DNA of 64,000 nt, taken from assembly GCA_965207225.1 (NCBI GenBank), contig CBDBLV010000005.1, forward strand, positions 704,001-768,000. Reading direction: 5' to 3'. Position numbers and translations under genes: made by a program. The notes under the pieces were generated by a model. It had not been told where the DNA came from. It saw only the letters and a program-made list of their open reading frames with translations, and did not search any database. This stretch comes from Dehalococcoidia bacterium (lineage in GTDB: Bacteria; Chloroflexota; Dehalococcoidia; Plut-88900). Below, piece after piece: positions 26,680 to 58,257 of this stretch; position 1 is the first letter of the stretch, and each line of letters begins with the position of its first letter.

Positions 26680-26783
26680 ATCGGGTTTCCTAAACCGTCC
26701 TCACCCCGAATCTCCGTCGAGCAACTACGGGAGAGTCCAACTCTCCCATATTTGTTGTCATCGAAGCCAAGCGTATACACCCG

Positions 26784-26811
26784 ACCAAATCCTTTGCTGG
26801 TACAATGGCCC
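26784..26811 (+). promoter_or_regulatory. Extended -10 promoter, BVMO copy 2
   Basis: ACCAAATCCTTTGCTGGTACAATGGCCC, near-identical to the copy 1 upstream element. Confidence 0.6.
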
Positions 26812-26871
26812 GTGTCCCGGAGATGTGTAGCCGGGAGCGGATCGAAGATGCTGAGTCGCAGGGGGAGTCGT

Positions 26872-28518
26872 ATGACGAGCTTTGACAATGGTGGCGATTT
26901 TGACGTAGTTGTGATCGGTGCTGGGTTCTCGGGATTGGGGATGCTGCGACGGCTCAGGGACGAGTCAGGCATGTCCGTCCAGATTTACGAAGCGGGTACC
27001 GGCGTCGGCGGCACCTGGTACTGGAACCGTTATCCAGGCGCCCGCTGCGACTCCGAAAGTTACACATATTGCTTCACCTTCTCCAAAGAGCTCCTCCACG
27101 ATTGGCAATGGAGCGGAAAGTACCCGGAGCAGCCCGAAATCCTCACTTACCTCAACCACGTCGCCGACCGCTTTGACCTCCGGCGTAACATCCAGTTCGA
27201 GACCCGCGTCACCTCCGCAACTTTTTTGGAGGACAGAAACCTCTGGCAGATAGAGACCGACCGGGGAGATAAAGTCACCGCCCGATACTTCATCACCGGT
27301 ATCGGCTGCATTTCCACGGGCAACATCCCCAAGATCAAGGGCCTCGACTCCTTCGAAGGCAACTGGTATCACACTGGCGGCTGGCCCCACCATCCCGTCG
27401 ACTTCACCGGCAAGCGTGTAGCAGTCATTGGCACCGGGTCCAGCGGTGTCCAGTCAATCCCCGTCATTGCCGCTCAGGCTAAGCACCTCACCGTGTTCCA
27501 GCGCACCCCCCAGTTCACCGTCCCCGCCCGACACGCTTCCATCGACACCCGCTTCATCGAAGAGGAGGTCAAACCCCACTACGATGAGATCATCGAGAGA
27601 ATGAAGTGGGCCCACGGTGGCACTCCCCAGATACCCATGGGTCGTTCCGCGTTGAATTTCTCGGAAGAAGATCGACGGGCTATCTACGAAAAGGCTTGGG
27701 CCGCCGGCGGTAACGACTTCGTCTACGGCTCCTTCGGCGATGTCATGACCAACAAGGACGCCAACGACACGGCATCCGATTTTATCCGCTCCAAGATCAG
27801 GGAAACGGTGAACGACCCCGAGACCGTTGAAAAGCTCCTGCCCCTGGACCACCCCTACGGCTCCAAGCGCGCCCTCATGGACACCAACTACTTCGAGACC
27901 TACAACCGCGACAACGTCTACCTCGTCGACCTCCGCCGGACCCCCATTCAGGAAATCACCCCCAGGGGCATACGCACCTCCGAGAAGGAGTTTGAGTTCG
28001 ACGCCATAGTCTTTGCCACCGGCTTCGACGCCATGACCGGCACCTTCATGAAGATCGACATCCAGGGCCGAGACGGCATCACCCTCAAAGACAAATGGGC
28101 CGAGGGCCCGAAGACTTACCTCGGTCTCCAGGTCGCCGGGTTCCCCAACATGTTCATGCTCACCGGCCCCGGCAGCCCCTCCGTGCTCACCAACATGCCC
28201 GTCGCCATCGAGCAGCACATTGAATGGGTCGCCGACTTCATAGACTGGATGCGAGACAGAGACCTCGAGACCGCAGAACCCGATCCCCAGGCAGAAAAGG
28301 ACTGGGATGTCCACGTCCAGGAGGAAGCCAACAAGACCCTCTATATGCAAGCCAACTCCTGGTACCTCGGCGCCAACATTCCCGGCAAGCCCCGTGTCTT
28401 CATGCCTTATACCGGTGGCATGGGAACCTACCGCAAACGCTGCAACGAGATCGCCGAGAACGGCTACGAGGGGTTCATCCTCGATGCAGTGCCGACCAAA
28501 AGTGCAGCTGTTGGATAG
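26872..28518 (+). CDS. Type I Baeyer-Villiger monooxygenase (copy 2; start moved to ATG 26872)
   Basis: Same fingerprints (FEGNWYHTGGW); collinear with copy 1; SD GGGGAG before MTSFD. Confidence 0.95.
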   Translation: MTSFDNGGDFDVVVIGAGFSGLGMLRRLRDESGMSVQIYEAGTGVGGTWYWNRYPGARCDSESYTYCFTFSKELLHDWQWSGKYPEQPEILTYLNHVADRFDLRRNIQFETRVTSATFLEDRNLWQIETDRGDKVTARYFITGIGCISTGNIPKIKGLDSFEGNWYHTGGWPHHPVDFTGKRVAVIGTGSSGVQSIPVIAAQAKHLTVFQRTPQFTVPARHASIDTRFIEEEVKPHYDEIIERMKWAHGGTPQIPMGRSALNFSEEDRRAIYEKAWAAGGNDFVYGSFGDVMTNKDANDTASDFIRSKIRETVNDPETVEKLLPLDHPYGSKRALMDTNYFETYNRDNVYLVDLRRTPIQEITPRGIRTSEKEFEFDAIVFATGFDAMTGTFMKIDIQGRDGITLKDKWAEGPKTYLGLQVAGFPNMFMLTGPGSPSVLTNMPVAIEQHIEWVADFIDWMRDRDLETAEPDPQAEKDWDVHVQEEANKTLYMQANSWYLGANIPGKPRVFMPYTGGMGTYRKRCNEIAENGYEGFILDAVPTKSAAVG

Positions 28519-30525: not shown

Positions 30526-32007
30526 CTAGCCGGCCATTGCGCTCGTAGCCGCCCCCCGCCCCGCTATCCTCCCGAACACCGACCCCGCCATCAGCCCCGA
30601 CCCACCGGCATAGTTGTGGTAAAACAGCCCGCCCACCAGCTCGCCCGCCGCGTACAGGCCGGGGATCGGCGCGTCCTCCGTGTCCAATACCTGCGCCTCC
30701 GGCGAGATCTTCAACCCCCCGAACGTGAACGTAATCCCACAAGTCACTGCATAGCCAACGTAGGGCGGAGAGTCCAGCCTTTGCGCCCAGTTCGACTTCG
30801 GCGGCTCGACTCCAACCGTCCCCTTTCCATCCAGCACCGCCGGATTGAACTCTCCCTCCATCACACAGGAATTGAACTTGCCCACAGTCTCTACAAGGTT
30901 TCCGCCGTTAATCCCCAGGGCCTCGGCCAGCCCCGCAATCGAGTTTGACTCAGCCTTCGTCACCCGGGAGAAATAGTATTCGTCCCTCAGCTTCTCCGAC
31001 ACCTTCGCATCAAAAATCTGGAACGCCGCCCGGTGGGGCTGCTTCAGTATCTCCCGGCCGTACTTGGCATACGTGAAGTTCCGGATGTCCGCGCCCTCGT
31101 CTAGGAAGCGTTTCCCTTCTGTATTCACCACTATCCCCAGCGGGTATGAGTGCTTCTGGAACAGGTCCGCCACGTTCCGGTCCCCGAAAGTCGGGGCATT
31201 CAGGTCCCACGCCACCGCATGACACGAGCTCCAGTGCCCGTAAGGCTGCGCCCCGATATCCAGCGCCATCCGGATCCCGTCCCCCGTGTTAAACCGTGTG
31301 CCCCGTACCTTCGCCAGTTCCCACCCGGGCCCCAGGTACCGGGTCCGCATCTCCGGGTTCGACTCGAAGCCCCCGCACGCCAGCACTACCGCCCCCGCCT
31401 CCATGTCACGCAACCCATCCTCCGTCCGCACCGACACCCCCGTCACCCGACCCGACTCATCCGTCAGCAACCCCCTGACCTTGGCCCCGTACAATACCTC
31501 TACCCCCCTCGCCTCCGCCATATTGAACAGCTCGTCCACCAGCCCCTTTCCTCCCCCCACAGCCTCCGTGATCAGGCCTCCGTAGAATTGCTGCTTCCCC
31601 CCGACCTCGAAAGACTGCCGACCGTACATCAACACGTAACGCAGCCCTTGCTCCCTTATCCAGTGCACCGTCGGGTGGGCCTCCGAGACCAGCGTCTGCA
31701 GTAGGTCCGCATCCGATAGCCCCTCCGTCACCCGCATGATGTCTTCGTACATCCTGGACTGCGGGTAGGACCCTATCTCGATCGACGCAGCTTCCTCGTC
31801 ATTCATCTCGGGAATTAACGCCCTGATGTCCTCCAATCCCTGGTAGGGGAACCGGAACCCGCCGCCCGTGAAATAGGAGTTTCCTCCGCGCAGGTGTTCC
31901 GGGGCCTTTTCCAGCACCAGCACCCGGACTCCCTGCTCCCTCGCCGAAAGCGCGGCGCACAGTGCCGCATTACCCGCTCCAACTACTATTACGTCTGCAT
32001 CTCTCAA
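30526..32007 (-). CDS. FAD-dependent tricarballylate dehydrogenase TcuA-like flavoprotein
   Basis: VGAGNAALCAALSA, RGGNSYFT, GGFESN, RFLDEG, GITFTFGGL, NYAGGSGL. Confidence 0.85.
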   Translation of the reverse strand: MRDADVIVVGAGNAALCAALSAREQGVRVLVLEKAPEHLRGGNSYFTGGGFRFPYQGLEDIRALIPEMNDEEAASIEIGSYPQSRMYEDIMRVTEGLSDADLLQTLVSEAHPTVHWIREQGLRYVLMYGRQSFEVGGKQQFYGGLITEAVGGGKGLVDELFNMAEARGVEVLYGAKVRGLLTDESGRVTGVSVRTEDGLRDMEAGAVVLACGGFESNPEMRTRYLGPGWELAKVRGTRFNTGDGIRMALDIGAQPYGHWSSCHAVAWDLNAPTFGDRNVADLFQKHSYPLGIVVNTEGKRFLDEGADIRNFTYAKYGREILKQPHRAAFQIFDAKVSEKLRDEYYFSRVTKAESNSIAGLAEALGINGGNLVETVGKFNSCVMEGEFNPAVLDGKGTVGVEPPKSNWAQRLDSPPYVGYAVTCGITFTFGGLKISPEAQVLDTEDAPIPGLYAAGELVGGLFYHNYAGGSGLMAGSVFGRIAGRGAATSAMAG

Positions 32008-35551: not shown

Positions 35552-37253
35552 CGTACCCGTCCCGACGAGGGTCCGCCGCCCCGAACAGCGCCCCTGTCGC
35601 CGGGTCCCGACGTATCATCACCTCGCTCCCCGACGCACCCCAGTCCCCCAGGATCTCCAGTTCGTGGCCCTTATTCTCCAGCGCCCTTCTAGCTTTCTCC
35701 GGGAACCGGCCCTCCAACTGCAGCCTGTCCCCAAACTCCCTCGGCTCCGTCGACTCCGTATTGTTCTGAAGGTGCCTCCATCTCGGGGCCTCCACCGCCT
35801 CGGACACATTCATTCCGAAGTCCAGGACGTGGGTGATAACCTGCATGTTGGTCTGGACCTGGGTGTCGGCGCCCGGGGTACCGCAGACCAGGACCAGCTC
35901 GCCGTTCGTCATCGCATTCTCCTCCCCCTCGAAAACCATCACCGGATTCATCGTATGCCTCACCCGACGCCCCGGAGTCAGGCAGTTGATGTGGTTGGGG
36001 TCAAGGTGCCAGTAGGTCATCCGGTCGTTGAGCAATATCCCCGTCCCGTCCACCACCACCCCGGACCCGAATGACGTCTGCTGGCTCTGTAGCTGGCTCA
36101 CCGCATTACCCCACCTGTCCACTACCACAAAGCACGTAGTGTCCCCTCCCCTGTCCCTCACCGTGCCTCGTTTTGCCACCTGTCTCTCCTTCGCCGGTCC
36201 GTCCTGATACTTGTACGGGTCCCCAGGAGCGACCTCCCTGTTCACCCTCCTCCGGTCTATGAGTGATGCCCGCTCCCACGCGTACATCTTGGAGAGCAGC
36301 CCTTGAATGGGTATGTCCAGGTAGTCAGGATCGGCAACGTATGCCTCCCTGTCGGCGAAGGCCAGCTTCTTTGCCTCCACCATTACGTGCACGGCCTCGG
36401 GCGTATTGCACCCGAGATCCCGGATGTCCATATGCTCGATGATGTTCAGCTCCTGCAACAGCACGTGTCCGCTGGAGTTCGGCGGCACCTCGAAGACTGT
36501 GTGCCCGTGGTAAGTGGTCGAAATAGGGTCCTGCCACTCCCCGTGAAACCGCCCCAGGTCCTCCAGTGAGAGAAGGCCACCGTTCAACCGGTTGTAGCGG
36601 ACTATGGCCTCGGCTATTTCGCCCCGGTAAAACACGTCCGCCCCGCCGGAGGCTATCAATTCGAAGGTATCAGCCAGGTCTCCCTGGTACAGGACTTCCC
36701 CAGCCTCCAGGGGTCGACCTCCCGGCGCAAATATCTCCTTCGATACCGGGTGGTTACACAGGAACGTATCATCTGCTATATCTTTTGCGAGCTTTCTGCT
36801 AACCGGAAAGCCGTCCCTTGCCAGCCCGACCGCCGGTGCAAATATCTCGGAGATCGGTAGTGACCCGTATCTCTCATGGGCCGCGAGCCAGGCGTCCAGC
36901 AACCCCGGCACCGACACCGATAGAAGCCCCTTCTCAGGGATGCCCGTGTCCGCATACCTCTCCCGAGTCGCCGCTAGGGGCGCGGGCCCCGTGCCGTTCG
37001 CGACCTCTATCTTCCCCAAGTCCCGACGGTAGACCATGATGAAGCCATCTCCCCCTATCCCCGACATCTGTGGCTCTACAACGTTCACCGCGGCGGCCAC
37101 CGCTATCGCCGCGTCAACCGCATTCCCACCCTGTTGCAGTATCGAAATACCCGCTTGTGATGCCAGCGGATGTCCCGAGGCCACCATTCCGTTCCGCCCC
37201 ATGATGTCGGGCCTGTGCGATTCAAACTGTACGCCGTGTGGAGAACTTGGCAT
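35538..37253 (-). CDS. ggt: Gamma-glutamyltransferase
   Basis: GGNAVDAAIA, SGIGGDGF, VPG, PPNSSG, nucleophile DTT, FGSG, HTMNP, GTPGAD, ADPRRDG. Confidence 0.95.
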   Translation of the reverse strand: MPSSPHGVQFESHRPDIMGRNGMVASGHPLASQAGISILQQGGNAVDAAIAVAAAVNVVEPQMSGIGGDGFIMVYRRDLGKIEVANGTGPAPLAATRERYADTGIPEKGLLSVSVPGLLDAWLAAHERYGSLPISEIFAPAVGLARDGFPVSRKLAKDIADDTFLCNHPVSKEIFAPGGRPLEAGEVLYQGDLADTFELIASGGADVFYRGEIAEAIVRYNRLNGGLLSLEDLGRFHGEWQDPISTTYHGHTVFEVPPNSSGHVLLQELNIIEHMDIRDLGCNTPEAVHVMVEAKKLAFADREAYVADPDYLDIPIQGLLSKMYAWERASLIDRRRVNREVAPGDPYKYQDGPAKERQVAKRGTVRDRGGDTTCFVVVDRWGNAVSQLQSQQTSFGSGVVVDGTGILLNDRMTYWHLDPNHINCLTPGRRVRHTMNPVMVFEGEENAMTNGELVLVCGTPGADTQVQTNMQVITHVLDFGMNVSEAVEAPRWRHLQNNTESTEPREFGDRLQLEGRFPEKARRALENKGHELEILGDWGASGSEVMIRRDPATGALFGAADPRRDGYAIGW

Positions 37254-37422
37254 ATCCTGGCCTCCGGGAAGCTAGAGTTGGACTGGATTATAGCGGACGC
37301 TCCCTATTGCGATGCTTTGCCATTCCCTTCCTCAGCCAAGGCCTGACCGATGGATGCAACTATTCCAGTTGACTTGACTGTATCTGACAAAGGGCGCTAT
37401 TGCCCTTTTTTGATAGCCTGTT

Positions 37423-37451
37423 TTGCCCTCTCCATAGCGGAGTTGTATACT
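37423..37451 (+). promoter_or_regulatory. Putative sigma70 promoter of the P450 fusion gene
   Basis: TTGCCC-N17-TATACT; SD GGAGG before ATG 37516. Confidence 0.55.
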
Positions 37452-37515
37452 GAAATTATTGAGACCTATCTAAGGTCGCCTGGAGTGCCTAGTCGATGCT
37501 CGGAGGAACAGATCG

Positions 37516-39540
37516 ATGACCCTGACGAAGGGCACTGAATCCACTGCCCTAAGCTTGCCCGAGGAGCTAATCATCATGCTCCTCAATGAGGAAACCGGCT
37601 ATTTCCACCAGGTGCCGGGCTGGGACTTGAATTGTGCTATCGCCGGCGCCGTAATCGCCGAGCTTTCCCTGCGTTCCCGTATAGACACCGATATGGAGTC
37701 CCTGTACCTCCTGGACGACACCCCTACAGGGGATTCAACCCTCGACCCCATCCTCAAGGAAATTGCTGACGAGCCTGTTCGTCATAACGCCCAGTACTGG
37801 GTCGAGCGCCTGGCTCCTCGCGCCGAATCCATCATAGATCTCACCTTGGACCGCTTGACAGGGCTCAAAATCCTCGAGCACCACGATGGCGAGTTCTGGA
37901 CACTATCTCGTTCTGCCTGGAGCGGCGGGTCACTCAGTGACTCGAGGAACGGCTCCGCCACGGAGTTCGTCAGGACGCGTATTGACAGGATCATCTTCGA
38001 AAACGAACTCCCCGACCCACGCGACATCATCATTATCTGCCTCATCAACACCTGCGACGTTTTCCGCTTCATGTTCCAGCTGGACGAGGAGTCAGAAAAG
38101 CGCATCGGGTTCATATGCAATATGGACTTGATCGCCCAATCAATTGCAACCGCTGTATCCCAAAACTTCGCCGGCCCTTTGTTGAGACGGTCGGCGCTTA
38201 CCAAGGATATCCCGAGAGTATCCCTGCGCAAAATGCTCTTCAATCCGCATCTTCGCAATGGGAACATACCGGCTCTCTTTGCCGACCTCGCCAAGGAGTA
38301 TGGCCCTGTTTTTGAGGTCCGTCCCCCGTTTTCCAAGTCTATGATCTTCCTCGCCGGCCCCGAGACGAATCACTGGGTGCATCGCCGCGGCCGAATGTAC
38401 CTGAGGGCAAGGGACTATTTTGAGGGTCTCGAGAAGGTCTATGGCGCGGCCGGGGTGTTGCCTTCTCTGGACGGCGCCGACCACTTCAGGCTCCGCAAGT
38501 CCTTGTCGTCTGCCTATTCCCGAAAAAGACTGGCAGATCAGATGGACGACCTGTTCGGCCATGCTCGTATGCACATGGCCCAGTGGAAGGTTGGTGAGTC
38601 CTATCCTGCAACCGGCATGAGCCGCTCCATGATAAACGCTCAAATATCACCCCTCCTGATCGGCGTGGAATCCCAAGACCTCATCGACGACTTGCTGAAG
38701 TTCAAAGAACGGGCCCTTGCCGTTCACATCCTGAAAGTTATGCCCAAGTTCATGCTGAAAACTCCCGGCATGAGGCGTCGTGCGAAAAAAATCGAAACCT
38801 TGCTTGAACGCATCCAGCGTGTGCATACCCCGGCTCAGCGAGCCGGGCAACATCGAAACCTTGTGGACGACTATCTGAGCCTCCACGCCAGCGACCCCCA
38901 GTTCGTGCCAGAGTCCAACCTGCGGTTCAATTTCACCGTGGCGCTGGTGGCCAGTGCATACCTTGGCGACGCATTCAGCTTTGCCTTATACGCTATGGCT
39001 TCGCAGCCTGAAATGTACGCGAAAATCCAAGCCGAAGCCGACGCCCTGTTCGACAATGGAGACCCGGGTCCCGATAACTTTGATCCCTCTTCAATCGACG
39101 TCACCCACAGGTTCCTAATGGAATGCCTGCGCATGTATCCCATCGTTCCGATGTCCCTGCGGCACGTGATGAATGCGTGTGTTGTTGAAGATTACGAATT
39201 GCCCGTGGGCTCAAGGGTCGCCATTGCCCAGACGGCCTCCCATTACATGAGCGATATCTTTCCCGACCCCTTCAAGTTCGATATAGACCGCTACCTCCCG
39301 CCGAGAAATGAGCACCGCAGTCCCGGGTACGCACCCTATGGACTCGGAACTCACACCTGCCTCGGATCCCGGTGGATGGAACTGCAGCTTGCCGTTAACG
39401 TCCTCATGGTGGCGCATTACTTTACGCTAAAGGTGTCGCCTCCCAATTTCAAGTTAAGAATCAATCCCTTACCCTCGTTGAAACCCAGCAAGAAGCTGAG
39501 ATTTCTCATTGCAGAGCAGCGGCGAGATTTGAACGTTTAG
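37516..39540 (+). CDS. GPP34 (GOLPH3/Vps74)-domain-cytochrome P450 fusion
   Basis: N-terminal ~215 aa LSLPEELIIMLL..AGAVIAEL..RI..PTGD..LD (GPP34 pattern); C-terminal ExxR (ECLR), FDIDRY and heme motif YGLGTHTCLG. Confidence 0.9.
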   Translation: MTLTKGTESTALSLPEELIIMLLNEETGYFHQVPGWDLNCAIAGAVIAELSLRSRIDTDMESLYLLDDTPTGDSTLDPILKEIADEPVRHNAQYWVERLAPRAESIIDLTLDRLTGLKILEHHDGEFWTLSRSAWSGGSLSDSRNGSATEFVRTRIDRIIFENELPDPRDIIIICLINTCDVFRFMFQLDEESEKRIGFICNMDLIAQSIATAVSQNFAGPLLRRSALTKDIPRVSLRKMLFNPHLRNGNIPALFADLAKEYGPVFEVRPPFSKSMIFLAGPETNHWVHRRGRMYLRARDYFEGLEKVYGAAGVLPSLDGADHFRLRKSLSSAYSRKRLADQMDDLFGHARMHMAQWKVGESYPATGMSRSMINAQISPLLIGVESQDLIDDLLKFKERALAVHILKVMPKFMLKTPGMRRRAKKIETLLERIQRVHTPAQRAGQHRNLVDDYLSLHASDPQFVPESNLRFNFTVALVASAYLGDAFSFALYAMASQPEMYAKIQAEADALFDNGDPGPDNFDPSSIDVTHRFLMECLRMYPIVPMSLRHVMNACVVEDYELPVGSRVAIAQTASHYMSDIFPDPFKFDIDRYLPPRNEHRSPGYAPYGLGTHTCLGSRWMELQLAVNVLMVAHYFTLKVSPPNFKLRINPLPSLKPSKKLRFLIAEQRRDLNV

Positions 39541-39573
39541 GTCACTCTTGCCCGACGTGAGCGAAGGAGGGGC

Positions 39574-40611
39574 CTAAAGGGGTTTGCGGGCCAGGAAGCA
39601 GTACAGCGGTGTGAATACCCCGGCCCTTCCACCTGCGACATAAGCATTCGCGGTCCGATCAAGCAACCTCACCACTTCCGATGACCCTTTTGGGAACATC
39701 CCCAGCGTCTCGGCCACCCTGGACATGGCTATGAATAGCTTACGTCCCAGCGGAATCCTGCGCAGGGCGTTGCCCAGCGTTCCATGCCGATTGTCCATCG
39801 GTTGATACCACGACGTGATTGGACCGTTCCCTTCCACAGCCCGGTCCTTCCCCTCGATAACTTCAAATCCCACCGATTCCAGGTCCCGATTCACCTCTCC
39901 CATAGTCGCTATATCCTTGAGCGCGATGCCACGCATAAGTTCCCTTTTGATGGCCTGGTGCCGGCTGTCTTCGGGGTCGAACCTGTTCGTCATGCACATC
40001 TCCTGGCCCCAGAAGAAGGCCCCGGGCTTCAGCACGCGGTAGATTTCCGCGAATGCCCCTGCCTTGTCCGGCGCATGGCACGTAGATTCAATCGCGTAGC
40101 CCCGGTCGAACGTGTTGTCCGCAATGGCGCCCATGTCCATGAAACTGCATGCAAGGTAGTCAACCATGTGGTCGAGTCCCGCCTCTTGATTCAATGACCT
40201 GGCCTTCTCTAACTGGACTTCGCTTCTATTGATCCCCGTGATCTTCACCCCTGCCTCCCGGGCCACCCGGCGCATAGGACCCCCAATCCCACACCCGACA
40301 TCAATCACGGTCATGCCTTCACGCAGTTCAAGCTTGGCGATCATCAGCCTCTGGTGCCGAATCTTGGATTCCTCCAGGGTTTCGCCGGGAGTTAGGGGGG
40401 CAAAGTGGAGGGACTCGCCCCAACCGAACACCATGAACTCATTGCACAGGTCGTAGTATTCCCTCACGGTTTCGGTGTGGTCGTAGTCTGTCGAGTTGGC
40501 ATTCCTCCCGTCGGCTCTTTTCATCCATCCGTCGAAGTGGTCAACGCGTCGGTGCACGTCCGACCCACGGTACGCGGCCTTCAGCCCACTGGATAGTTTC
40601 CGGAGTTGCAC
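39574..40611 (-). CDS. Sterol 24-C-methyltransferase (Erg6/SMT)-like SAM methyltransferase
   Basis: FGWGESLHF, DVGCGIGGP, YAIESTCHAP, YRVLKPG and Sterol_MT_C-like tail AGG..VFTP..FLARKP. Confidence 0.88.
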   Translation of the reverse strand: MQLRKLSSGLKAAYRGSDVHRRVDHFDGWMKRADGRNANSTDYDHTETVREYYDLCNEFMVFGWGESLHFAPLTPGETLEESKIRHQRLMIAKLELREGMTVIDVGCGIGGPMRRVAREAGVKITGINRSEVQLEKARSLNQEAGLDHMVDYLACSFMDMGAIADNTFDRGYAIESTCHAPDKAGAFAEIYRVLKPGAFFWGQEMCMTNRFDPEDSRHQAIKRELMRGIALKDIATMGEVNRDLESVGFEVIEGKDRAVEGNGPITSWYQPMDNRHGTLGNALRRIPLGRKLFIAMSRVAETLGMFPKGSSEVVRLLDRTANAYVAGGRAGVFTPLYCFLARKPL

Positions 40612-40623
40612 TAGCCTGGTTTC

Positions 40624-43101
40624 CTATGGTGATTCCTGTTCCTGCTCATGCCGCCTGTGGATATCATCTATAGCCACGTCCAGGTCGGTCCACATCCGTT
40701 CCACCATGGAGCGCAGCCGCATGTTCTGGTATGCGCCCCAGACTGTCATGGCCGTCGGCACAACCAGGATCGATACTATCAACGAGTAGACGATGGTTAT
40801 CGCCGCCGTTATCCCGAAGTCCCGAGATGCGTCTAGCGGTGAGAATACCAGCACCCCCAACCCCAGTCCCGTGGTCAGCGCGGATCCCAGCAGCGCCGAC
40901 CCCGTTGTTGCCAGAGTCTTGATAGCCGCCTTCTCCGGGCTCCTCAGCCGTGCGAACTCTTCCCGGTACCGGTGGATTATGTGGATCGTGTAGTCCACCC
41001 CGATCCCGATGGACAGCGCCGTGATGATCGATGTAACCAGTGAGTACGGGATGTCCAGCAGTGCCATGGTGCCCAACACCCAGATCAGGACCAGCACTAT
41101 CGGGCCCACGGCGAATACCGCCAGTATCGGCTGGCGGAGCGTCACCCAGAAGAAGATTCCCAGGACAGCCAGGGCTACCCCGACCGTGGTTGTAATAGCC
41201 TCAGTCTGCCGATTCGTGATCGCATCCGTGACCGTCACGGAGACCAAGCTCAAGGAAGTCGCCGTGATGGCTTCGTCGTCACCCGACCAAAGCTCCTCGA
41301 TCTCATCCTGGAGGATCTTGTTGGCCGCCGGATCGTCGTTGAATGCCGGGAACTGGAATAGCATCGTATCTATGCCATCGGGATTGTCCACCAGCACGTG
41401 TGCCGTAGCAGGGTCCAGCTCCTCCATCCTGTCAATCAACTCTTGCATCTTTACCGGATTCAACTCGAGCCCGGCATCTGCATCCCGATAGAGAGATGCC
41501 AATGTTTCATCGAACTTGTCGCCTGGGGCCCCACTGTCGTGCGTCCAGTCCCTTACCAGCAATTCGTATGAGGAAACTATCGGCCCCGCGGCCGCCTGGG
41601 GTCGACGCCTCTCATCCTCGAAAGCGCGCTCGAGGTCTCGCATGTTCAATAGCGTGCGCGTCTCCGTCGCCTCTGCCTTGACGATCACGCTCACCATCTC
41701 TGTAGATCCCCCCACCGACGCGTCCAGCGTATCCATGTCGGTCCTCAGCTCTCCACCCCTCGGCAGGATGTCCCGAATGCTGAACTCCGACTCGATGTCC
41801 GTGGCCGCAAACCCGAGCCCCACTGTAATCGCCAGCACTACCAGCAGGAATGGAGCGGGCCGCCTAGTTACGTTCCTCCCCAACACCTCAGCCAGTCTCT
41901 CGACCCCCGGAAGCGCCTGGGCAATGGGCCGAGGTGGTTTCAGCGTTCCTCGGGCCTCTCGCCTCCTGTCTATGATCGTCCTGCCTGCCGGGACAAAGGT
42001 AAGCATTACAATCAGGCTTAGCCCCACCCCCAGCCCCCCGATGATCCCGAAGTCTCCTACTATCTCCACCGTCGAGAACAGGCTCACCAGAAGGCTCGCG
42101 ATCGTCGTCACCGCAGCCAGCACCAGCGGCAGAATCACGTTTCGCAGTCCCGTCCGTATCGCAGGCGTCACTGTCAGGCCCGCAGTGCGTTGCTCCCTGT
42201 AGTGCGAAATCATCTGGATCGCGTAGTCAACCGTAAGGCTGATCACGATGATTGGCACCATCGTTGTCAGTGAGTTCGGAGGCCCCGTTGCCCCTAGGGC
42301 ATTTGGCCCGAGCCACCCCTCCGCCCCGACTATCCAGATCAACGCTACCAGGAGGCCTACCAGCGTAAGCAGCAGGTCGGTGATGGTGCGCATGAACAGC
42401 AGGAGCAGCCCCGCAATCAGCAAAAATGCAATCCCAATAAGCGGGAGCATTCCCGTTTCCGTGGCTTCCTTGTATTCGTCTTCGATTATCACTGGGGAGA
42501 GGCTGCTTACCTCCAGGCGCCCTTCGCTCTCTACCGCCAGCTCGTGTATTCTTCGCTCCGCTTCCTCGACCCGCTCGTCCCCCGTGTCCCGAAGCCGGAT
42601 GTTGGCTATCGAGATCTGAGTGCCATCCGTGTCAGTTCCTGTCAATGCCTCCAACGCCCTCTTGATCTCCGGAGGCCCGGTCGCCGCCTCTATTCTGGCT
42701 TCGGTAACTGACTCAAAGTCCTCCACCTGCAGAAGGACCCGTACCAGGTCCGTCGGCGCAATTACTGGGTCGGTCGGCGCTAGCAGCCCCGACACCGCCG
42801 GATCCCCGACCACCTCGTTGATCAGGTCGTCCATCTGGGACAACCCGTCTGGAGTCAGGGTGTCGCCCCGGAAGATCAGCGTCACCACGCTAGTCTCTCC
42901 CGACTCTCCGAACAGTTCGTCAATCTCATTCATCGCCGCGGTTATGGGACTTCCCTTGGGCAGGGTTGCTTCGGTTTCGGGAGGAGGCGCGCGGCGATCC
43001 GCGCCCATCGCCAGCAACACTGTAATGATCAGCAGGATCAATATCGTTATGTATGGACGGGCAGTAATCACCCAGCTAAGCCAACCGAGGATTTTGTTCA
43101 T
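40624..43101 (-). CDS. MMPL/RND-family lipid transporter
   Basis: 825 aa in two repeats (1 TM, large loop, 5 TM); SLTVDYAI and GIGVDYTIH; SALTT. Confidence 0.92.
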   Translation of the reverse strand: MNKILGWLSWVITARPYITILILLIITVLLAMGADRRAPPPETEATLPKGSPITAAMNEIDELFGESGETSVVTLIFRGDTLTPDGLSQMDDLINEVVGDPAVSGLLAPTDPVIAPTDLVRVLLQVEDFESVTEARIEAATGPPEIKRALEALTGTDTDGTQISIANIRLRDTGDERVEEAERRIHELAVESEGRLEVSSLSPVIIEDEYKEATETGMLPLIGIAFLLIAGLLLLFMRTITDLLLTLVGLLVALIWIVGAEGWLGPNALGATGPPNSLTTMVPIIVISLTVDYAIQMISHYREQRTAGLTVTPAIRTGLRNVILPLVLAAVTTIASLLVSLFSTVEIVGDFGIIGGLGVGLSLIVMLTFVPAGRTIIDRRREARGTLKPPRPIAQALPGVERLAEVLGRNVTRRPAPFLLVVLAITVGLGFAATDIESEFSIRDILPRGGELRTDMDTLDASVGGSTEMVSVIVKAEATETRTLLNMRDLERAFEDERRRPQAAAGPIVSSYELLVRDWTHDSGAPGDKFDETLASLYRDADAGLELNPVKMQELIDRMEELDPATAHVLVDNPDGIDTMLFQFPAFNDDPAANKILQDEIEELWSGDDEAITATSLSLVSVTVTDAITNRQTEAITTTVGVALAVLGIFFWVTLRQPILAVFAVGPIVLVLIWVLGTMALLDIPYSLVTSIITALSIGIGVDYTIHIIHRYREEFARLRSPEKAAIKTLATTGSALLGSALTTGLGLGVLVFSPLDASRDFGITAAITIVYSLIVSILVVPTAMTVWGAYQNMRLRSMVERMWTDLDVAIDDIHRRHEQEQESP

Positions 43102-43226
43102 CGTTTACCCTTCCGTATCAGGCGTCCATGGGTTTCGAAACAGCCGTCTTCCGGACCAGTTCATTTGGCCTATCCCTAACGACATCCTTCCACTGCATCT
43201 TCTCTCGAGGTCCGGTCCCAGTCCAA

Positions 43227-44333
43227 CTACGATACTCCCGAATGTACCCTCGCCACGCCTTCGGGCTCGCCTGCCATCGACCCGTTCGATTCGAAGGAGT
43301 CGGCGTAAAACTGCTTGCAGTATTGCCTGAAGGGTATGATCTCCCCATCGGAAAGACATAGGCGCGGCTGGGCCCGGTAGCGCTTACGGCTCCAGATGAC
43401 CACGTCTTGCATCACATCCCCGCGCTGAAATCCCGCAACGAATCTGTTGAATACCGGGGCCCGATATCTCACCGGCAAGAACCCCAGGCCCGCAAACCAC
43501 CGTTTCGGCTTCCTTATCTCCCTTGCCTGGGAGACCAGTGACAGGTCGATCAGCTTGCCGTCCACGGGCGTCGCCAGTATCCACAGGCGCGTATCCACCC
43601 CTATCGACTTCTCTCGGATCTCAACGTACGAATACCCGAGCCCGTATATCTGCGTATTTGCAGATACGTCCAGGGTGACCTCCCCGATCTTCGCCACCCT
43701 GCGCTTACTCCTGAAGTCAAACCGGCTCTCAAGGTAGTGTCTATCCACCAGGAGCTTTCCCACTCTCTTCACATTGCCGTATCCATGTATATAGCGGAGG
43801 TGCGCCAGGTCCACGGAGTTTTCCGTCGTATCCTGCGGATGGCCGGGAAACCGGATTGTCTGGATCTTGGTTCTGGTCCAGCCTGTCTGGTCGGGTTCCT
43901 CTTGTGGAAGGTCCCATTGCGGCCCCCGCCCCCCGATTCCCCACCACCCCAAAATCAGCCCCGCAATCTCTCGCGTCTCGAAAACCCTTAGTTTTGCTGT
44001 TTTCGGCGGCTCGGCGAAGGGGGTAGCAACGCACTGCCCGGCAGCATCAAATTCGAATCCGTGAAACGGGCATACCAGCCGACCCCCGCGCACGCACCCT
44101 CCGGCATCGCTGCCCAGGTACGATCCCAGGTGCGGGCAATACGCCTCGGCCACGCAAACCCGACCCTTATCGCCGCACCAGGCTACAATCTCCTCCCCCA
44201 TCCATGTCCCTTGGAGGAGCTTGGCCTTTTCTATAGCCTTTCGGCTCGCGATGAAATACCAACCCTCCGGGAAGGGAGAGGGGGGTTCGTCCAGCATTGG
44301 TGGCCTGTGTCGGGTCGTTGTCAACCTGCGCAC
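43227..44333 (-). CDS. Rieske non-heme iron oxygenase, Neverland/KshA family
   Basis: FPEGWY, YCPHLG..CPFHG, ENSVDLAHLRYIH, C-terminal D.VIW..K.Y...P.L...DG.I..FRQY.KQFY. Confidence 0.88.
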   Translation of the reverse strand: MRRLTTTRHRPPMLDEPPSPFPEGWYFIASRKAIEKAKLLQGTWMGEEIVAWCGDKGRVCVAEAYCPHLGSYLGSDAGGCVRGGRLVCPFHGFEFDAAGQCVATPFAEPPKTAKLRVFETREIAGLILGWWGIGGRGPQWDLPQEEPDQTGWTRTKIQTIRFPGHPQDTTENSVDLAHLRYIHGYGNVKRVGKLLVDRHYLESRFDFRSKRRVAKIGEVTLDVSANTQIYGLGYSYVEIREKSIGVDTRLWILATPVDGKLIDLSLVSQAREIRKPKRWFAGLGFLPVRYRAPVFNRFVAGFQRGDVMQDVVIWSRKRYRAQPRLCLSDGEIIPFRQYCKQFYADSFESNGSMAGEPEGVARVHSGVS

Positions 44334-44485
44334 CTTGCTTTTACGGTCGAGTTGGCCGTAGCTTTATCCGTCAAGGTTATGTCTTACCTTAGTTGTACTG
44401 TTTGGACAGCGCGAACTCTATCACGCCCAGTTTCAGGCGGGCAATCTCAGGCGCTTATTGGCGTATTCACCAGTGCAGGATCGCA

Positions 44486-45949
44486 TCATGCGAAACCGTA
44501 GGCTTCCTCCGTATCCTCAACGCGCATCAGCAGCGCCGGCAAAATGGAGAACAGCGCAAGGAAACCCGCTATCATGAACAGGTTCTGGAAGACTGTCACA
44601 CCGGCCTCTATCAGGGGTGCTTCCGTCTCCTCGAAGGTTTCACCCAGGGTCACATCCGCAGTGAGCGTGTAGAAACGCTCTATGCCCCACGCCGAAAGGG
44701 CTGCCAGCCCCAACGCCATACCGACCATCCGAGACGCTGTCACCAGCGACGCCGCCGCTCCCCAGTAGTCTCCCGGCGCCGCGCTAAGGGCGCTCACAGT
44801 GATCGGTGGGATTACCAGCCCGAACCCCAGGCCCGTGATTACCAGAGGCGCCGTAAGCCTGAGTTGCTCAACCTGTGTCTCCCAGCCACTCATGAACAGC
44901 AGGCCCGTGCCTATGAATGCCAGGCCGGTAATGCACACCGCGCGCACACCCGTCCACCGCAGGATGTAGCCTCCCACTATTGCTCCCACGGGTATTGCCG
45001 CCGTGAGCCGGAACAGGTGCAGGGCGCTCACCCAGGCCGGTTTCTCCATCACGGTAGCTGCCATCAACGGCACCGCTACCAGGGAGATTATCAGCGCCAC
45101 CCCCACCAGGAACTGGGTCGCATTGGAGGACAGGAAGGCCCGCGAGTTGTACAGAAATGAGGCCAGCAGAGGCTGGGCGGTACGCCTCTCCATCACGATC
45201 AGTATCCCCACCAAAACGACTCCCAGGGCGATCATGAAATACGGGACTATCGACTCCCCGGAAAAGATCGTCCTCTGGGAGAGCGCCAGGCTCAATGTGG
45301 TAAGAGCTCCTCCCAGGATCAGCGCCCCGAGGTAGTCCATTTTCGCCGATGGGTTGGCCCGGTTCTTCAGGATGGCCAATAATGCGATTAGAAAGAAGCT
45401 CTGCGGGATGTCCAGCCAGAATATCCACCTCCACCCGATCCACTCGATAATCCCACCACCATACAAAGGCCCCAGCACCGACCCCGCCTCCGCCGACGCC
45501 GCAACCAGCCCAAGGGCCACCCCTCTCTTCTGCGGCTCGACGGTCCCCACTGCCATCGCGAGCCCTATAGGAACCGTGGCCCCACCCCCCGCCGCCTGCA
45601 GCACCCTCGCCGTTACCACCCACGGAAAGTTCGGCGCCACCGCCACAAGCGCCGACCCTATGGAGAACAATACAAGTGCCGCCTGGAACATCCTCACCCG
45701 ACCATGAACGTCGGAAAGCCGCCCCGCTAGCGGCATTGCTACCGTATAGCTCACCAGGTATGCCGTTACAATCCAGGAGGCCGTGTCCAGGTCCGTAAGC
45801 GGGATCTCCAGGTCCACCATCACACTGGGCAGTGCGGCAACCACTACGGTCTGGTCAAGGGCGGTGGAGAATACCCCCAGGCAGAGGATCCCCAGGATGA
45901 CCGACTGCGAAGAACCAAGGGCCATCAGGCCCGACCTGGCTGACTTCAC
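44486..45949 (-). CDS. 14-TM MFS transporter, P55 (Rv1410c)-like
   Basis: ALDQTVV, WIVTAYL..Y...MPL.GR.SD..GR, RMVGM..G.AALSAWG..RF as recalled for mycobacterial P55. Confidence 0.88.
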   Translation of the reverse strand: MKSARSGLMALGSSQSVILGILCLGVFSTALDQTVVVAALPSVMVDLEIPLTDLDTASWIVTAYLVSYTVAMPLAGRLSDVHGRVRMFQAALVLFSIGSALVAVAPNFPWVVTARVLQAAGGGATVPIGLAMAVGTVEPQKRGVALGLVAASAEAGSVLGPLYGGGIIEWIGWRWIFWLDIPQSFFLIALLAILKNRANPSAKMDYLGALILGGALTTLSLALSQRTIFSGESIVPYFMIALGVVLVGILIVMERRTAQPLLASFLYNSRAFLSSNATQFLVGVALIISLVAVPLMAATVMEKPAWVSALHLFRLTAAIPVGAIVGGYILRWTGVRAVCITGLAFIGTGLLFMSGWETQVEQLRLTAPLVITGLGFGLVIPPITVSALSAAPGDYWGAAASLVTASRMVGMALGLAALSAWGIERFYTLTADVTLGETFEETEAPLIEAGVTVFQNLFMIAGFLALFSILPALLMRVEDTEEAYGFA

Positions 45950-46722
45950 GGCTGCGAAGCTGTCTCCGGGACCTGGATTTCCACCGGCAGGTTGATATCG
46001 CGTATCTTGATCAGGCGGCTTGTTTCGGGGGCGTCGTCCGCGAAGATTTTTCCCAGGATTTGGAATTGTGTGATCGCGTGGTCGGCCTCGCTGAACCAGA
46101 AGCCCAGCCTGAGCTCGTGTCCCGGGTCAACGGAGGTAATCAGTTCCCCCAGGTCCTCTGATAAGGCGTCTCCTTGTACCCGGATGCTCTCTACCCCGCC
46201 AATCGACTCCCTTCCAGTGATCTGCGTGTTCTCCATCGCGGGCAATACTCGGGCCAGGATGGCGCCTATCCCCCCAAAATTGAAGGGCACTTGTTCCAGC
46301 GGAAGAGGTAGCCACGGCGCATCGGCCGAGAATTTGATGAATGAGTCCTCGCCTACCGCCGTCATCTCGATCACAACGAATCCGAAACTGGGATTCTCCA
46401 CGTTCACGTACATCTTGAAGCCGTCCGGCGACTTCACCTCCCCCTCCACGCTCTTCAGGGTCATCCCGAAGAACTCCTGCCCCGACTCCTTCTCATCCAC
46501 CATCTCAAACTTCACCGTTGAAATCGCTGTCAGTTTCTCCTCAGCGCTGGAGACCAGTTCATCAAGGGTGATCTCGGGCATCGGTGTTGCTGTTGGCTCA
46601 ACAGTGGCGGGGGCCTCCGCTTCGGGCTCGGCCCCCGACCCGCACGCCGCCCCCAAAACCAGCAGACCTATCAAGAGAATAGTGACGGCAACCCTTGAAC
46701 GTACAGCCTCGGACAACTTCAT
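45946..46722 (-). CDS. LppX/LprAFG (LprG)-like lipoprotein
   Basis: Signal peptide with lipobox GAAC; beta-rich body, GRESIGGVES, C-terminal INLPVEIQVP; 4-nt overlap with the P55-like MFS. Confidence 0.8.
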   Translation of the reverse strand: MKLSEAVRSRVAVTILLIGLLVLGAACGSGAEPEAEAPATVEPTATPMPEITLDELVSSAEEKLTAISTVKFEMVDEKESGQEFFGMTLKSVEGEVKSPDGFKMYVNVENPSFGFVVIEMTAVGEDSFIKFSADAPWLPLPLEQVPFNFGGIGAILARVLPAMENTQITGRESIGGVESIRVQGDALSEDLGELITSVDPGHELRLGFWFSEADHAITQFQILGKIFADDAPETSRLIKIRDINLPVEIQVPETASQP

Positions 46723-47057
46723 CTGCTGGTCTCCATATAGATTAGCCTTGTAACCACACTAAGGTGCCGTTTCGTAGGTAAAAGGAGGGCGATATCTTTC
46801 AGCGGGATTCGCTGTACCTCCACCCCACCCCCGGGGACATGCCAACCCCACGGCTTTATTGCAGCTTCCACAGCCGCTAAGCGCGTTGGAGATGCCGTTG
46901 TTTGCCGCTTGTCGGTATGCAAAACAGCGTGATTCGTATTCAACGAGAAGCGCAAGCAGACCGGACCACCGCCGAAACAGTATCCAGAACCTGCTTTCTT
47001 GTCAAACTGCCCCGTCGCCTGCCTATCCTTCAGGCATCGTTTCCTGATCTTATCCTG

Positions 47058-47591
47058 CTATTGGGTTTCCTTCGTAATAGCCAAGTCTTCGTTGGATCCG
47101 AAGATGAAACCACCCAGAAAAGGCTCGAAAATACTACGGTATTCCTGGATCTGAGATTCGATGTCCAGCCCTTCTTTATCTTGCACTTCTACTTCAAGAA
47201 CCTGTCCCACGCCATCTACATCATCGAGATTGAAGATGACATTATCTTTGTGCCACAGTTCTCTACGCTTACGCACAATAGCTCGGATTCCCAACGCCGC
47301 TTTCAGAACATCAGACAGTCGAGAGTCGTTGACATTCCACATCTGAAAAGTGCTCGTTCTGGCCCCTTCTTCTTGTCGGTCACAATAGTGGATCAGATGT
47401 CGGCTCCCTTTTTCAGCGCGTAGCTTGAGACGTCGAACCCCTGCCCCATCTTCATGAACTGGTAGGTGATAGAAGTAGTCCACCTGCTCTTTAGTCTCTA
47501 TAAACAGCGCTCCGGACTCCTGGAGAATCCTTCGCACCGGTGCAAAGTCGGGACAATACGCCTTTATTTCTCGATTTGTTCTTGGGGCCAT
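47058..47591 (-). CDS. CYTH-domain (class IV adenylate cyclase-like) protein (start moved to 47591)
   Basis: N.EIKA, QVDYFY, RLKLR, VRKRRELW, LDDVDGVG..LEVEV. Confidence 0.88.
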   Translation of the reverse strand: MAPRTNREIKAYCPDFAPVRRILQESGALFIETKEQVDYFYHLPVHEDGAGVRRLKLRAEKGSRHLIHYCDRQEEGARTSTFQMWNVNDSRLSDVLKAALGIRAIVRKRRELWHKDNVIFNLDDVDGVGQVLEVEVQDKEGLDIESQIQEYRSIFEPFLGGFIFGSNEDLAITKETQ

Positions 47592-47780: not shown

Positions 47781-48845
47781 ATGCAGATTCCCTTCGGAGT
47801 CATCGACGCGGACGGCCACATTATTGAAGACCAGGCCAGAATCCGGGACTATATGCCCGAGCCCTACAACGGCTTCCTCATGGACAACCTCCCCGACACC
47901 CAGGGCCGAGTGGGCCATGGCAGCGCCATCACCAACCGCGCTTTCTCCGACTCCACCCTCGGGGGCAGGATGGGCGGTCTGGGCCCAGCCGGCTACCCCT
48001 TCCCCAATGACTGGCTCGACGCCCTGGGCTGGGGCGGCATGGAAATGACCTTCCTTTTCCCCACCGTACTCCTCACTTACGGCACCATCTGGGACCCCGA
48101 CTACCTCAAGGCTCTGACCTACGCCTACAACTGCTGGGTGGCCGACGAATGGCTCAGCGTTAGCCCCAGGCTCAAGGCCGTCTCCCTCGTTCCTCTAACC
48201 GATGTCCAGGCTGGAATCAAGGAGATGCGACGCACTGTCACCGAGTCGGGCTTCTCCGGTGTTATGCTTCCGGCCGTTGGGTTCGGCGGATACGGAGAAA
48301 GCCGCCTCGATCCGTTCTACGAAGAAGCCCAGGCCCTCGGTTGCCTCCTAGCCGTCCACGGCGGCACCTCCGAGTACATGAAGTACACCAAGTTCATCCA
48401 GCGCCACACCACCGCCTTCCCCATCTCCAACATGCTCCAGACCGTCCACATGGTCTACGGTGGCGTCTTCGAAAGGTTCCCGACCCTCAAGGTCGGCTAT
48501 CTCGAAACCGGCTGCACTTGGGTCCCCTTCTTCCTCGACAGGATGGATGAGGAATGGGAAAAACGCGGCTGGCTCGAAACCCCTGACTGCAAGCGCAAAC
48601 CCAGTGAATACCTCAAGAGCGACAGGGTCTGGTACCACGCCGAGCCCAGCGAGTCCCTAGTTCCCCAGGTCGTCGACATCCTCGGCGAAGACACCCTCTT
48701 CTACGCCTCAGACTGGCCCCACTGGGACAACGAATACCCCGAAAGCGTCGAACACTTCTGGACCCGGGAAGACCTCTCAAAAGACGTCAAGCGCAAGATC
48801 CTCCGTGACAACTCCCTAGCCATGTACGGCGTAAACGGCGCCTAG
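47781..48845 (+). CDS. Amidohydrolase_2 family metal-dependent hydrolase/decarboxylase
   Basis: IDADGH, AYNCW, AVH, GGVFERFP.LK..LETG..W, YASDWPH. Confidence 0.9.
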   Translation: MQIPFGVIDADGHIIEDQARIRDYMPEPYNGFLMDNLPDTQGRVGHGSAITNRAFSDSTLGGRMGGLGPAGYPFPNDWLDALGWGGMEMTFLFPTVLLTYGTIWDPDYLKALTYAYNCWVADEWLSVSPRLKAVSLVPLTDVQAGIKEMRRTVTESGFSGVMLPAVGFGGYGESRLDPFYEEAQALGCLLAVHGGTSEYMKYTKFIQRHTTAFPISNMLQTVHMVYGGVFERFPTLKVGYLETGCTWVPFFLDRMDEEWEKRGWLETPDCKRKPSEYLKSDRVWYHAEPSESLVPQVVDILGEDTLFYASDWPHWDNEYPESVEHFWTREDLSKDVKRKILRDNSLAMYGVNGA

Positions 48846-52111: not shown

Positions 52112-52127
52112 CTCCAAAACTCCTCTG

Positions 52128-54541: not shown

Positions 54542-54550
54542 TTGGCCTCG

Positions 54551-58256: not shown

Positions 58257-58257
58257 T

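Follow-up and report, generated by a model that had tools for sequence, protein, structure and literature searches.

The 64,000-nt stretch analysed here (the window; positions 704,001 to 768,000 of contig CBDBLV010000005.1 from the Dehalococcoidia bacterium assembly GCA_965207225.1) carries a plus-strand gene at 37516..39540 that fuses a GPP34 domain to a cytochrome P450 domain. We consider it likely, with a probability of about 0.6, that the encoded protein is a cytoplasmic P450 oxygenase of a cassette which tailors and exports host-sterol-like lipids, and that it belongs to a clade in which the I-helix was rebuilt once. The sterol link is based on the gene context and not on the P450. A minus-strand operon that converges on the fusion gene codes for a sterol methyltransferase-type enzyme (SMT), a Rieske oxygenase, two transporters, and a lipoprotein, and members of this set recur beside related fusion genes in several phyla.

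The fusion gene and its rebuilt I-helix

The open reading frame (ORF) starts with ATG; it encodes 674 residues and is free of interruptions, as the first-pass annotation of this DNA had stated. The annotation had also assigned the two parts of the protein to GPP34 and P450, and a Pfam scan confirms both. The GPP34 domain (PF05719) spans residues 14-214 (37555..38157, plus strand), with an E-value of 9.2e-26 and 91.6 bits against a cut-off of 29.1, and covers profile positions 1-198 of 201. The P450 domain (PF00067) spans residues 247-660 (38254..39495, plus strand), with an E-value of 3.3e-36 and 125.5 bits against a cut-off of 22.8. A protein homologue search returned 2049 significant matches among 8000 candidates; the best 120 of these are 648-690 residues long, show 72-100% identity, and all carry both Pfam domains. 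Because full-length two-domain homologues abound, the ORF is a real gene and not a chance reading frame. An exhaustive search of cluster representatives gave 17548 matches at E≤0.001 (410 at E≤1e-30), including many full-length fusions of 655-690 residues with identities down to 26% as well as unfused P450s of about 440-500 residues with ~30% identity. Species-representative genomes contain 204 relatives of the gene. One relative (L005), which is 100% identical to the fusion protein, is labelled as a Dehalococcoidia metagenome-assembled genome, and several others bear the titles of sponge-type bins.

The fusion architecture is already published as GPP34_L, a family of proteins of ~675 residues with a GPP34 domain followed by a P450 (Ferreira et al., Microbiome 2025;13:4, PMC11706023). 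Of the 663 long GPP34 proteins described there, 656 are of this type; all reports of the family are from sponge symbionts, and its expression is documented in sponge metatranscriptomes. The gene from the window has the identical architecture, and the titles of its relatives point to the same types of bacteria (bins of Dehalococcoidia, Acidimicrobiia, Latescibacterota, and Nitrospira). It is one more member of this family, and the fusion is no novelty. The GPP34_L passages of the paper contain no I-helix analysis, no check of pocket residues, and no analysis of the genes flanking the long form (PMC11706023).

The haem-binding hallmarks of the P450 domain were evaluated in an alignment of 49 full-length fusions. 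E536 and R539 of the ExxR motif (E536-C-L-R539; 39121..39132, plus strand) are invariant, as is C615 (codon 39358..39360, plus strand), the haem thiolate ligand in the sequence YGLGTHTCLG. The PERF-like motif DIDRY (FDIDRY) is near-invariant, and the haem-ligand loop is of normal length. In the AlphaFold (AF2) model, which has a predicted local distance difference score (pLDDT) of 88.9 and a predicted template modelling score (pTM) of 0.85, the I-helix extends over residues 466-495 (38911..39000, plus strand) according to DSSP.

It is in this helix that the protein departs from the standard P450 pattern. Residues 473-492 read FTVALVASAYLGDAFSFALY and do not contain (A/G)Gx(D/E)T. Instead, the alignments reveal the deletion of one residue within a rebuilt oxygen-activation motif, V478-A-S-A-Y482-L-G-D485 (38947..38970, plus strand). 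Because no indel separates the catalytic-Thr position from the conserved SFxLY, Tyr482 falls into the Thr column, and the acid is lost. The lack of the usual acid-alcohol pair, which had been noticed at first inspection, is thus genuine, and its form is VASA-YLGD with one residue missing. The deletion is found in 16 of the 49 fusions, including that of the window, and is accompanied by A-S-(A/V)-Y-L-G-D or close variants; Thr is retained in the catalytic column by 29 of the remaining 33, mostly as AG(L/I)(D/E)T. A canonical I-helix is also present in 20 of the 22 nearest unfused relatives.

A tree of 71 P450 domains was computed with the motif columns removed (IQ-TREE quick mode, LG+G4, no outgroup). 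All 18 rows with the deletion state are on one side of a branch with a support of 100 in the Shimodaira-Hasegawa-like approximate likelihood ratio test (SH-aLRT), and a single change is sufficient to account for them. Their Thr column is occupied by Tyr (15 cases), Asn (2), or Arg (1). When polarity is taken from AGxDT as the general P450 state and from the state of the unfused relatives, the deletion state appears to be derived and to have arisen once. Within the canonical fusion clade of this tree, some unfused forms are nested. An unfused P450 of 456-469 residues, 39-41% identical to the P450 domain of a canonical fusion, occurs in ~6 Mb genomes of one genus (G223, G189, G144, G099, G048, and G060; loci L125 and L126), where it has an unrelated context (alpha-amylase, transposase). 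When a single canonical member (P0140) was compared with metagenome contigs, eight loci were retrieved, one of them with a full-length fusion.

P450s without the catalytic Thr and with atypical oxygen activation include CYP74 allene oxide synthase, CYP8A1, and CYP5A1; in EryF, activation is substrate-assisted. The acid-alcohol pair is lost in these enzymes as in the fusion P450, and Asn, which CYP74 and CYP8A1 have in the Thr column, is also found there in two members of the deletion clade. The fusion differs from CYP74-type P450s in the normal length of its haem-ligand loop, and none of our results points to a peroxide substrate. Judged from the sequence of the rebuilt helix, plain hydroxylation seems less likely than desaturation or another non-standard oxidation.

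The convergent operon and its recurrence

The operon is encoded on the minus strand and points at the fusion gene, the facing stop codons being 33 nt apart. Its first gene (45946..46722) codes for an LprG/LppX-like lipid-carrier lipoprotein of 258 residues with a signal sequence ending in LGAAC. The AF2 model of this protein (pLDDT 80.2) was matched by Foldseek to LprG (3mha; E 1.7e-12, template modelling score [TM] 0.78) and also to LprF and LppX, with TM values up to 0.79. The gene overlaps by 4 nt the start of the next one (44486..45949), which codes for a DHA2/EmrB-type transporter of the major facilitator superfamily (MFS) with 487 residues (MFS_1, 146.8 bits; efflux_EmrB, 182.3 bits, which is below the cut-off of that family). 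This is followed by a KshA-like Rieske oxygenase of 368 residues (43227..44333; Rieske domain and KshA_C, 86 bits), whose nearest solved relative is KshA (PDB 4qdc, E 2e-23), and by an MMPL/HAE3-type transporter of the resistance-nodulation-division (RND) type with 825 residues (40624..43101; PF03176, 149.9 bits), which contains a sterol-sensing domain (PF12349, 49.8 bits). The last gene (39574..40611) codes for the divergent SMT-type enzyme of 345 residues (Sterol_MT_C, PF08498, 58.6 bits with a cut-off of 21.7; Methyltransf_11, PF08241, 66.9 bits).

KshA as the nearest solved Rieske relative and the sterol-sensing domain of the pump suggest a sterol flavour of the partners, and the predicted LprG/LppX fold suggests a lipid flavour. 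In mycobacteria, LprG/LppX lipid carriers pair with MFS (P55) and MmpL pumps in an operon. The lipoprotein from the window matches their fold, its MFS partner is translationally coupled, and an MMPL-type RND protein is encoded in the same operon. The present system differs in that it is from another phylum and in that oxygenases and a methyltransferase accompany the pumps.

The G+C content is 0.55-0.58 over 37-40.5 kb and 0.60-0.63 on the flanks. A promoter and terminator scan of 37000-47300 was uninformative (4 and 9 sites compared to 4.7 and 7.6 expected). Two genes past the operon, an Amidohydro_2 gene (47781-48845, plus strand) was encountered, which may be a peripheral cassette member.

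The recurrence of this neighbourhood was analysed in 77 related loci with flanks of ±10 kb, obtained from the best 80 of the 204 relatives in species-representative genomes. They are from Dehalococcoidia/Chloroflexota (39), Acidimicrobiia (31), Latescibacterota (2), and a gammaproteobacterium (1), with four unassigned. By tblastn (at least 50% coverage), the Rieske protein was found beside the fusion in 66 of the 77 loci, the RND transporter in 53, the SMT in 39, and the MFS transporter and the lipoprotein in 24 each, compared to 3 loci each for GGT and FolD, which served as flank controls. At least one of the four main partner families is present in 74 loci and at least two are present in 63. 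Unbiased clustering of the 1271 ORFs from the loci retrieved the same families and, in addition, FAD amine-oxidase-like proteins (42 loci), Amidohydro_2 (18), FMO-like proteins (13), and a second, unfused P450 (12). In the genome of the window, the FAD amine-oxidase-like gene is unlinked (C1:197243-198595, 73% identity). SMT linkage differs by phylum, with 34 of 39 loci in Chloroflexota and 1 of 31 in Acidimicrobiia. All five Acidimicrobiia fusion genomes that were tested have an SMT, which is 17-20 kb from the fusion in three of them.

The association was also evaluated at the genome level, using 401 genomes from the phylum of the window; five of these, flagged as unpublished (G038, G344, G145, G173, and G272), are among the negatives only. 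A GPP34/P450 relative is present in 61 of the genomes and the two-domain fusion in 30. An SMT was found in 32 genomes; these all belong to the 61, the remaining 340 being without one. It is present in 27 of the 30 fusion genomes, in 20 of them within 5 kb of the fusion gene. In a genome carrying both fusion types (G310), the SMT adjoins the deletion-type copy. Sterol_MT_C was not detected in any of 14 control genomes. SMTs adjacent to a fusion gene score 53-65 bits on Sterol_MT_C, compared to 77-94 bits for unlinked paralogues in the 401-genome sample. In one genome (G294:C1:1370798-1381083), three Sterol_MT_C matches lie within ~10 kb of the fusion gene, one of them a 60-residue fragment, which suggests local SMT duplication and decay.

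All functional SMTs tested have the motifs GWGxxFHF (Region I) and DxGxGxxGP (Region II) (Brown & Welander, preprint, 10.64898/2025.12.19.695621). In the cassette enzyme, Region II is intact (DVGCGIGGP), and Region I reads GWGESLHF, with GW(G/S)ESLHF in homologues. It is thus a divergent subclass, as judged from sequence, which has Leu where the functional enzymes have Phe. A homologue search with the SMT retrieved no informative names. Bacterial SMT clusters have been described which also have Methyltransf_11 and Sterol_MT_C and are also from uncultured sponge-associated bacteria (Brown et al., Nat Commun 2023, PMC10070321; Brown & Welander, preprint), and 8 of 10 sponge-symbiont SMTs methylated desmosterol (Brown et al., 2023). 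Common to these papers and the present reading is that the side chains of sterols would be alkylated by bacteria, perhaps with host-acquired sterols as substrates. Their clusters represent de novo routes with ERG1/ERG7, ERG11 (~31% identity), ERG24, and SdmA (44-47% identity), none of which was found in the genome of the window. The terms "P450", "GPP34", "Rieske", "Golgi", and "erg5" do not occur in the SMT texts of these papers and three supplements.

The fusion genes of the canonical clade have a different context. None of the cassette partners was found at the four loci retrieved (L122, L123, L124, which is fragmentary, and L086). In three Chloroflexota genomes, a membrane O-acyltransferase (Acyl_transf_3) is encoded directly beside the canonical fusion (L122:12025-13206, L123:3328-4509, L124:8138-9262). 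On one metagenome contig, a sulfotransferase gene is located upstream (L086:3168-4199) and two FGE-sulfatase genes downstream (L086:6366-8765). This fits a scheme in which the canonical clade would hydroxylate a substrate and the new hydroxyl would then be decorated, the deletion clade performing other chemistry.

When 74 fusions were placed in a tree, a branch with an SH-aLRT support of 96 separated the Chloroflexota copies from the rest, and 7 changes were needed for the phylum labels, the minimum being 4. That the gene is highly mobile between phyla, an option which we considered, is not supported by these numbers; transfers between phyla look to have been few. Cross-phylum identities of 60-72%, together with the dip in G+C, suggest a horizontal origin of the fusion gene.

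Source of the substrate and alternative readings

De novo sterol synthesis was searched for in the genome of the window. An oxidosqualene cyclase (OSC) was not found: the sole cyclase (~C5:510400-514300, L001) scores 257.7 bits compared to the OSC cut-off of 851 (TIGR03463). Squalene epoxidase (PF08491) has no match in the genome, and no second P450, CYP51 included, was found besides the fusion. These results indicate that the substrate is likely an imported sterol-like lipid. The cyclase has the motif DIDDAA, scores 490 bits on SQHop_cyclase_C, and overlaps a squalene/phytoene-synthase-like gene. The contrast between DxDD and VxDCTA motifs, which we take to separate the cyclase types, bears on this assignment, and the genome probably makes hopanoids rather than sterols. 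None of the 401 genomes from the phylum has an OSC over the cut-off (the nearest, G348, reaches 745 bits), and no cyclase match at E≤1e-30 was obtained for 14 of the 30 genomes with a fusion. Thus, neither endogenous sterols nor hopanoids can be the general substrate of the fusion.

Under the reading that we favour, a sterol-like lipid would be acquired from outside, most likely from the host. The P450 and the Rieske enzyme would oxidise it, and the SMT-type enzyme would methylate it before it reached the pumps. The cassette would be a recurrent one among sponge-associated bacteria. The flavin amine-oxidase-like enzyme encoded elsewhere in the genome would belong to the same module. The GPP34 domain would be a built-in accessory, docking to membrane, lipid, or partner, and not a secreted binder of phosphatidylinositol 4-phosphate (PtdIns4P). 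The order of the steps and the type of reaction are proposals.

The P450 domain itself tells little about the substrate. By sequence, its best solved relative is a Methylococcus-type CYP51 (E 5.2e-19, 71 bits), followed by CYP102-like proteins, CYP184A1, CYP120, and CYP46A1. By structure, Foldseek ranks CYP184A1, P450 BM3, and CYP51 alike, with TM values of 0.77-0.84 and 15-20% identity. The CYP51 from Methylococcus capsulatus (PDB 6mcw/7jj1), which has a TM of 0.82, is only ~19% identical, and the fusion lacks its I-helix sequence AGHHTS. CYP51 orthology was thus rejected, the match being on par with those to CYP102 and CYP184. For comparison, the bacterial ERG11 homologues from the published SMT clusters are ~31% identical to the yeast enzyme, with E-values of about 1e-70 (PMC10070321). 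No P450 equivalog of NCBIfam is near its cut-off, the top match being pentalenene oxygenase with 67.7 bits compared to 800, and a search of the ESM Atlas with the P450 domain retrieved only clusters labelled as generic "cytochrome P450". Of the sterol link proposed in the first-pass annotation, what can be upheld is a plausible connection through the neighbouring genes, none being provided by the P450, which is as close to CYP184A1 and BM3 as to CYP51.

Several points weigh against the favoured reading. The roles of all cassette members are predictions from sequence, models, and context, and the P450 carries no substrate signal. Region I of the SMT departs from GWGxxFHF, with Leu89 in 120 of 120 and Ser86 in 25 of 120 homologues among the matches listed, and the enzyme may act on a non-sterol substrate. 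The RND pump is below the cut-off for HAE3 (221.8 bits compared to 351.9) and also below those for HpnN (104.9 bits) and BstA (22.1 bits). The Rieske protein was considered as a candidate for SdmA and rejected, since it reaches 33.1 bits compared to a cut-off of 600 (NCBIfam NF052579) and is matched over the Rieske domain only. Carriers of the LprG type are known for glycolipids and triacylglycerides and not for sterols, as indicated by PDB titles. The fusion gene converges on the operon and is not co-transcribed with it, and the cassette encodes no redox partner. The sampled genomes are kin, so that the co-occurrence counts overstate independence, and the contrast with the canonical clade is drawn from 3-4 loci only. 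Finally, the absence of an OSC means "not found" in a genome of 92.3% completeness and 8.3% contamination.

Some of these points would be accounted for if the cassette tailored and exported a non-sterol lipid (fatty-acid-derived, polyprenoid, hopanoid-like, or a glycolipid), the "sterol" labels of SMT, sterol-sensing domain, and KshA_C being misleading. Among the best fold matches of the P450 are CYP184A1, for which a complex with oleic acid has been solved, and BM3, a hydroxylase of fatty acids. The Phe89 shared by all functional SMTs is missing from the cassette enzyme, the cargo of LprG and LppX consists of glycolipids or triacylglycerides, the RND pump is MMPL/HAE3-like, and the genome has a squalene-hopene-type cyclase. 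We nevertheless regard this explanation as unlikely. Sterol_MT_C is specific, being absent from the 14 control genomes and from all 340 genomes without a GPP34/P450 relative; the 14 fusion genomes without a cyclase match exclude hopanoids as a general substrate; the Rieske protein is closest to KshA among solved structures; and the published restriction of the family to sponges (PMC11706023) fits a substrate derived from the host.

The tailoring of host sterols can be phrased in a more specific form, which we offer as speculation and hold to be rather improbable as a whole. The deletion clade would not hydroxylate but would desaturate a host sterol or rearrange it in a peroxide-type reaction, providing the olefin or other functional group that the divergent SMT needs; unusual alkylated "sponge" sterols would thus be made from host sterols, and pumped out, by bacteria that do not synthesise sterols themselves, and the AGxDT sister clade would hydroxylate for acylation or sulfation. 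If so, the proposed "symbiosis factor" would be recast as an agent of sterol chemistry, and there would be an extra bacterial route to the sterols of the sponge biomarker debate.

A different role has been published for GPP34 proteins, including the long form (Ferreira et al., 2025): they are proposed to be secreted effectors which bind PtdIns4P of the host and block phagosome maturation, with the P450 assisting in some way. The expression of the family in sponge metatranscriptomes and its exclusive occurrence in sponge symbionts agree with this model, as does the fact that the eukaryotic proteins GOLPH3 and Vps74 bind PtdIns4P (Wood et al., 2009, PMC2806290). In GOLPH3, the pocket is formed by W81, R90, R171, and R174. 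A profile of 21 N-terminal domains of the fusion aligns to GOLPH3 (3kn1, E 1.7e-8) and Vps74 (E 1.1e-7), anchored by the segments LVELKILE and LVEKGVLT. According to this alignment, A43 stands at the position of R90 (where the family consensus has Val), E104, which is near-invariant, at that of R171, and I107 at that of R174. The mapping has its own weakness, the GOLPH3 alignment being remote (37 bits) and the position of W81 ambiguous (V33, with W36 nearby). A ten-residue loop before alpha6 is missing in the GPP34 domain of the fusion. With regard to the projecting beta-hairpin that GPP34 proteins require to oligomerise and to bind membranes, the model has paired strands at 120-123 and 127-130 and, behind them, a loop of low confidence (136-149). 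Because three of the four pocket residues are missing, the idea of a PtdIns4P effector is weakened, and the membrane targeting through PtdIns4P that the first-pass annotation had proposed becomes doubtful.

The effector model is also confronted with other observations, which together make it very unlikely in our view. Hydropathy analysis revealed no N-terminal signal or anchor in the fusion, the top-scoring 19-residue segments being a core helix of GPP34 and the I-helix. A P450 requires haem and cytoplasmic electron donors, and its conserved neighbours here code for metabolic enzymes and lipid pumps. The main text of the paper does not use the terms "binding pocket", "signal peptide", or "sterol", and its passages on flanking genes concern the short form (PMC11706023). 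A stand-alone short GPP34 protein of 216-229 residues is also encoded in the genome (C5:309631-310224, minus strand; L128:7587-8237; 155 bits). It keeps the equivalent of R174 and lacks those of R90 and R171, and its gene is surrounded by those for a peptidase M28, a solute-binding protein, and an aminotransferase, no P450 gene being close by. Complex prediction of the GPP34 domain (1-232) with the P450 domain (240-674) resulted in scores of 0.00 and 0.00 compared to a mark of 0.32, controls not having been folded. Rare GPP34-Rieske fusions have been reported (PMC11706023) and, together with the Rieske partner from the cassette, they hint that GPP34 might be an accessory domain of the oxygenases of this pathway.

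The first-pass annotation had compared the I-helix to that of sterol C22-desaturases (CYP710/CYP61), so that the fusion would be such an enzyme, anchored to the membrane through GPP34. CYP710A and CYP61 are indeed side-chain sterol P450s without the catalytic Thr, and an SMT as neighbour suits late side-chain chemistry. The QDA motif that the annotation had given for these desaturases is confirmed for CYP710A, the published signature of substrate recognition site 4 being F(L/M)F(A/S)QDA(S/T)(S/T)S (PMC9368853). However, CYP710A retains the acid, has Ala in place of Thr, and shows no indel, whereas the fusion is one residue shorter, has lost the acid, and has Tyr in the Thr column. According to the family alignment, to which no CYP710 or CYP61 sequence contributed, the "GDA" from the window is located 3-4 residues (about one turn) past the Thr column. 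It is thus out of register with QDA and the analogy fails. No CYP710 or CYP61 structure was among the solved matches of the P450. As the P450 is also no nearer to sterol P450s than to fatty-acid P450s, we find a C22-desaturase highly doubtful.

That P450 (in a CYP125-like role) and KshA-like oxygenase initiate a breakdown of host sterols for carbon, for which the relationship to KshA and the presence of Baeyer-Villiger-type and acyl-CoA dehydrogenase genes within 12 kb could be invoked, is hardly credible, because neither a methyltransferase nor export pumps serve catabolism, conservation with the fusion does not extend to the distant flanks (GGT and FolD as above), and the nearby FAD_binding_2 protein (30526-32007, minus strand), when considered as ketosteroid dehydrogenase KstD, proved to be the tricarballylate dehydrogenase TcuA (578 bits, cut-off 369).

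The tailoring and export of host-sterol-like lipids, which we prefer, would connect two topics that have been treated separately. In the literature, GPP34_L figures as a hallmark of sponge symbiosis for which a role in host manipulation is speculated, and bacterial SMTs figure as a complication for the sponge biomarker record; no paper joining the two was found in the literature searched. If the cassette tailors host sterols in bacteria unable to make them, GPP34_L would gain a biochemical role that can be tested, and the set of organisms shaping "sponge" sterol profiles would be wider. The clade pair with canonical and rebuilt I-helix would then also be a natural resource with which to study the re-engineering of oxygen activation in P450s.

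Other genes in the window

Two tandem genes for FMO/Baeyer-Villiger-type monooxygenases are located at 25009-28518 (plus strand). The first scores 268 bits on PtlE, with a cut-off of 1100, and an FMO-like family recurs in 13 of the 77 related loci, as mentioned above. On the other side of the operon, a minus-strand run of genes at 50702-58295 codes for an amidase, a DAO-type oxidase, a creatinase/prolidase-like peptidase, a GCV_T protein, and a sarcosine-oxidase-alpha-like protein of 996 residues. This run is probably a catabolic cluster for methylated amines or of the creatine type.

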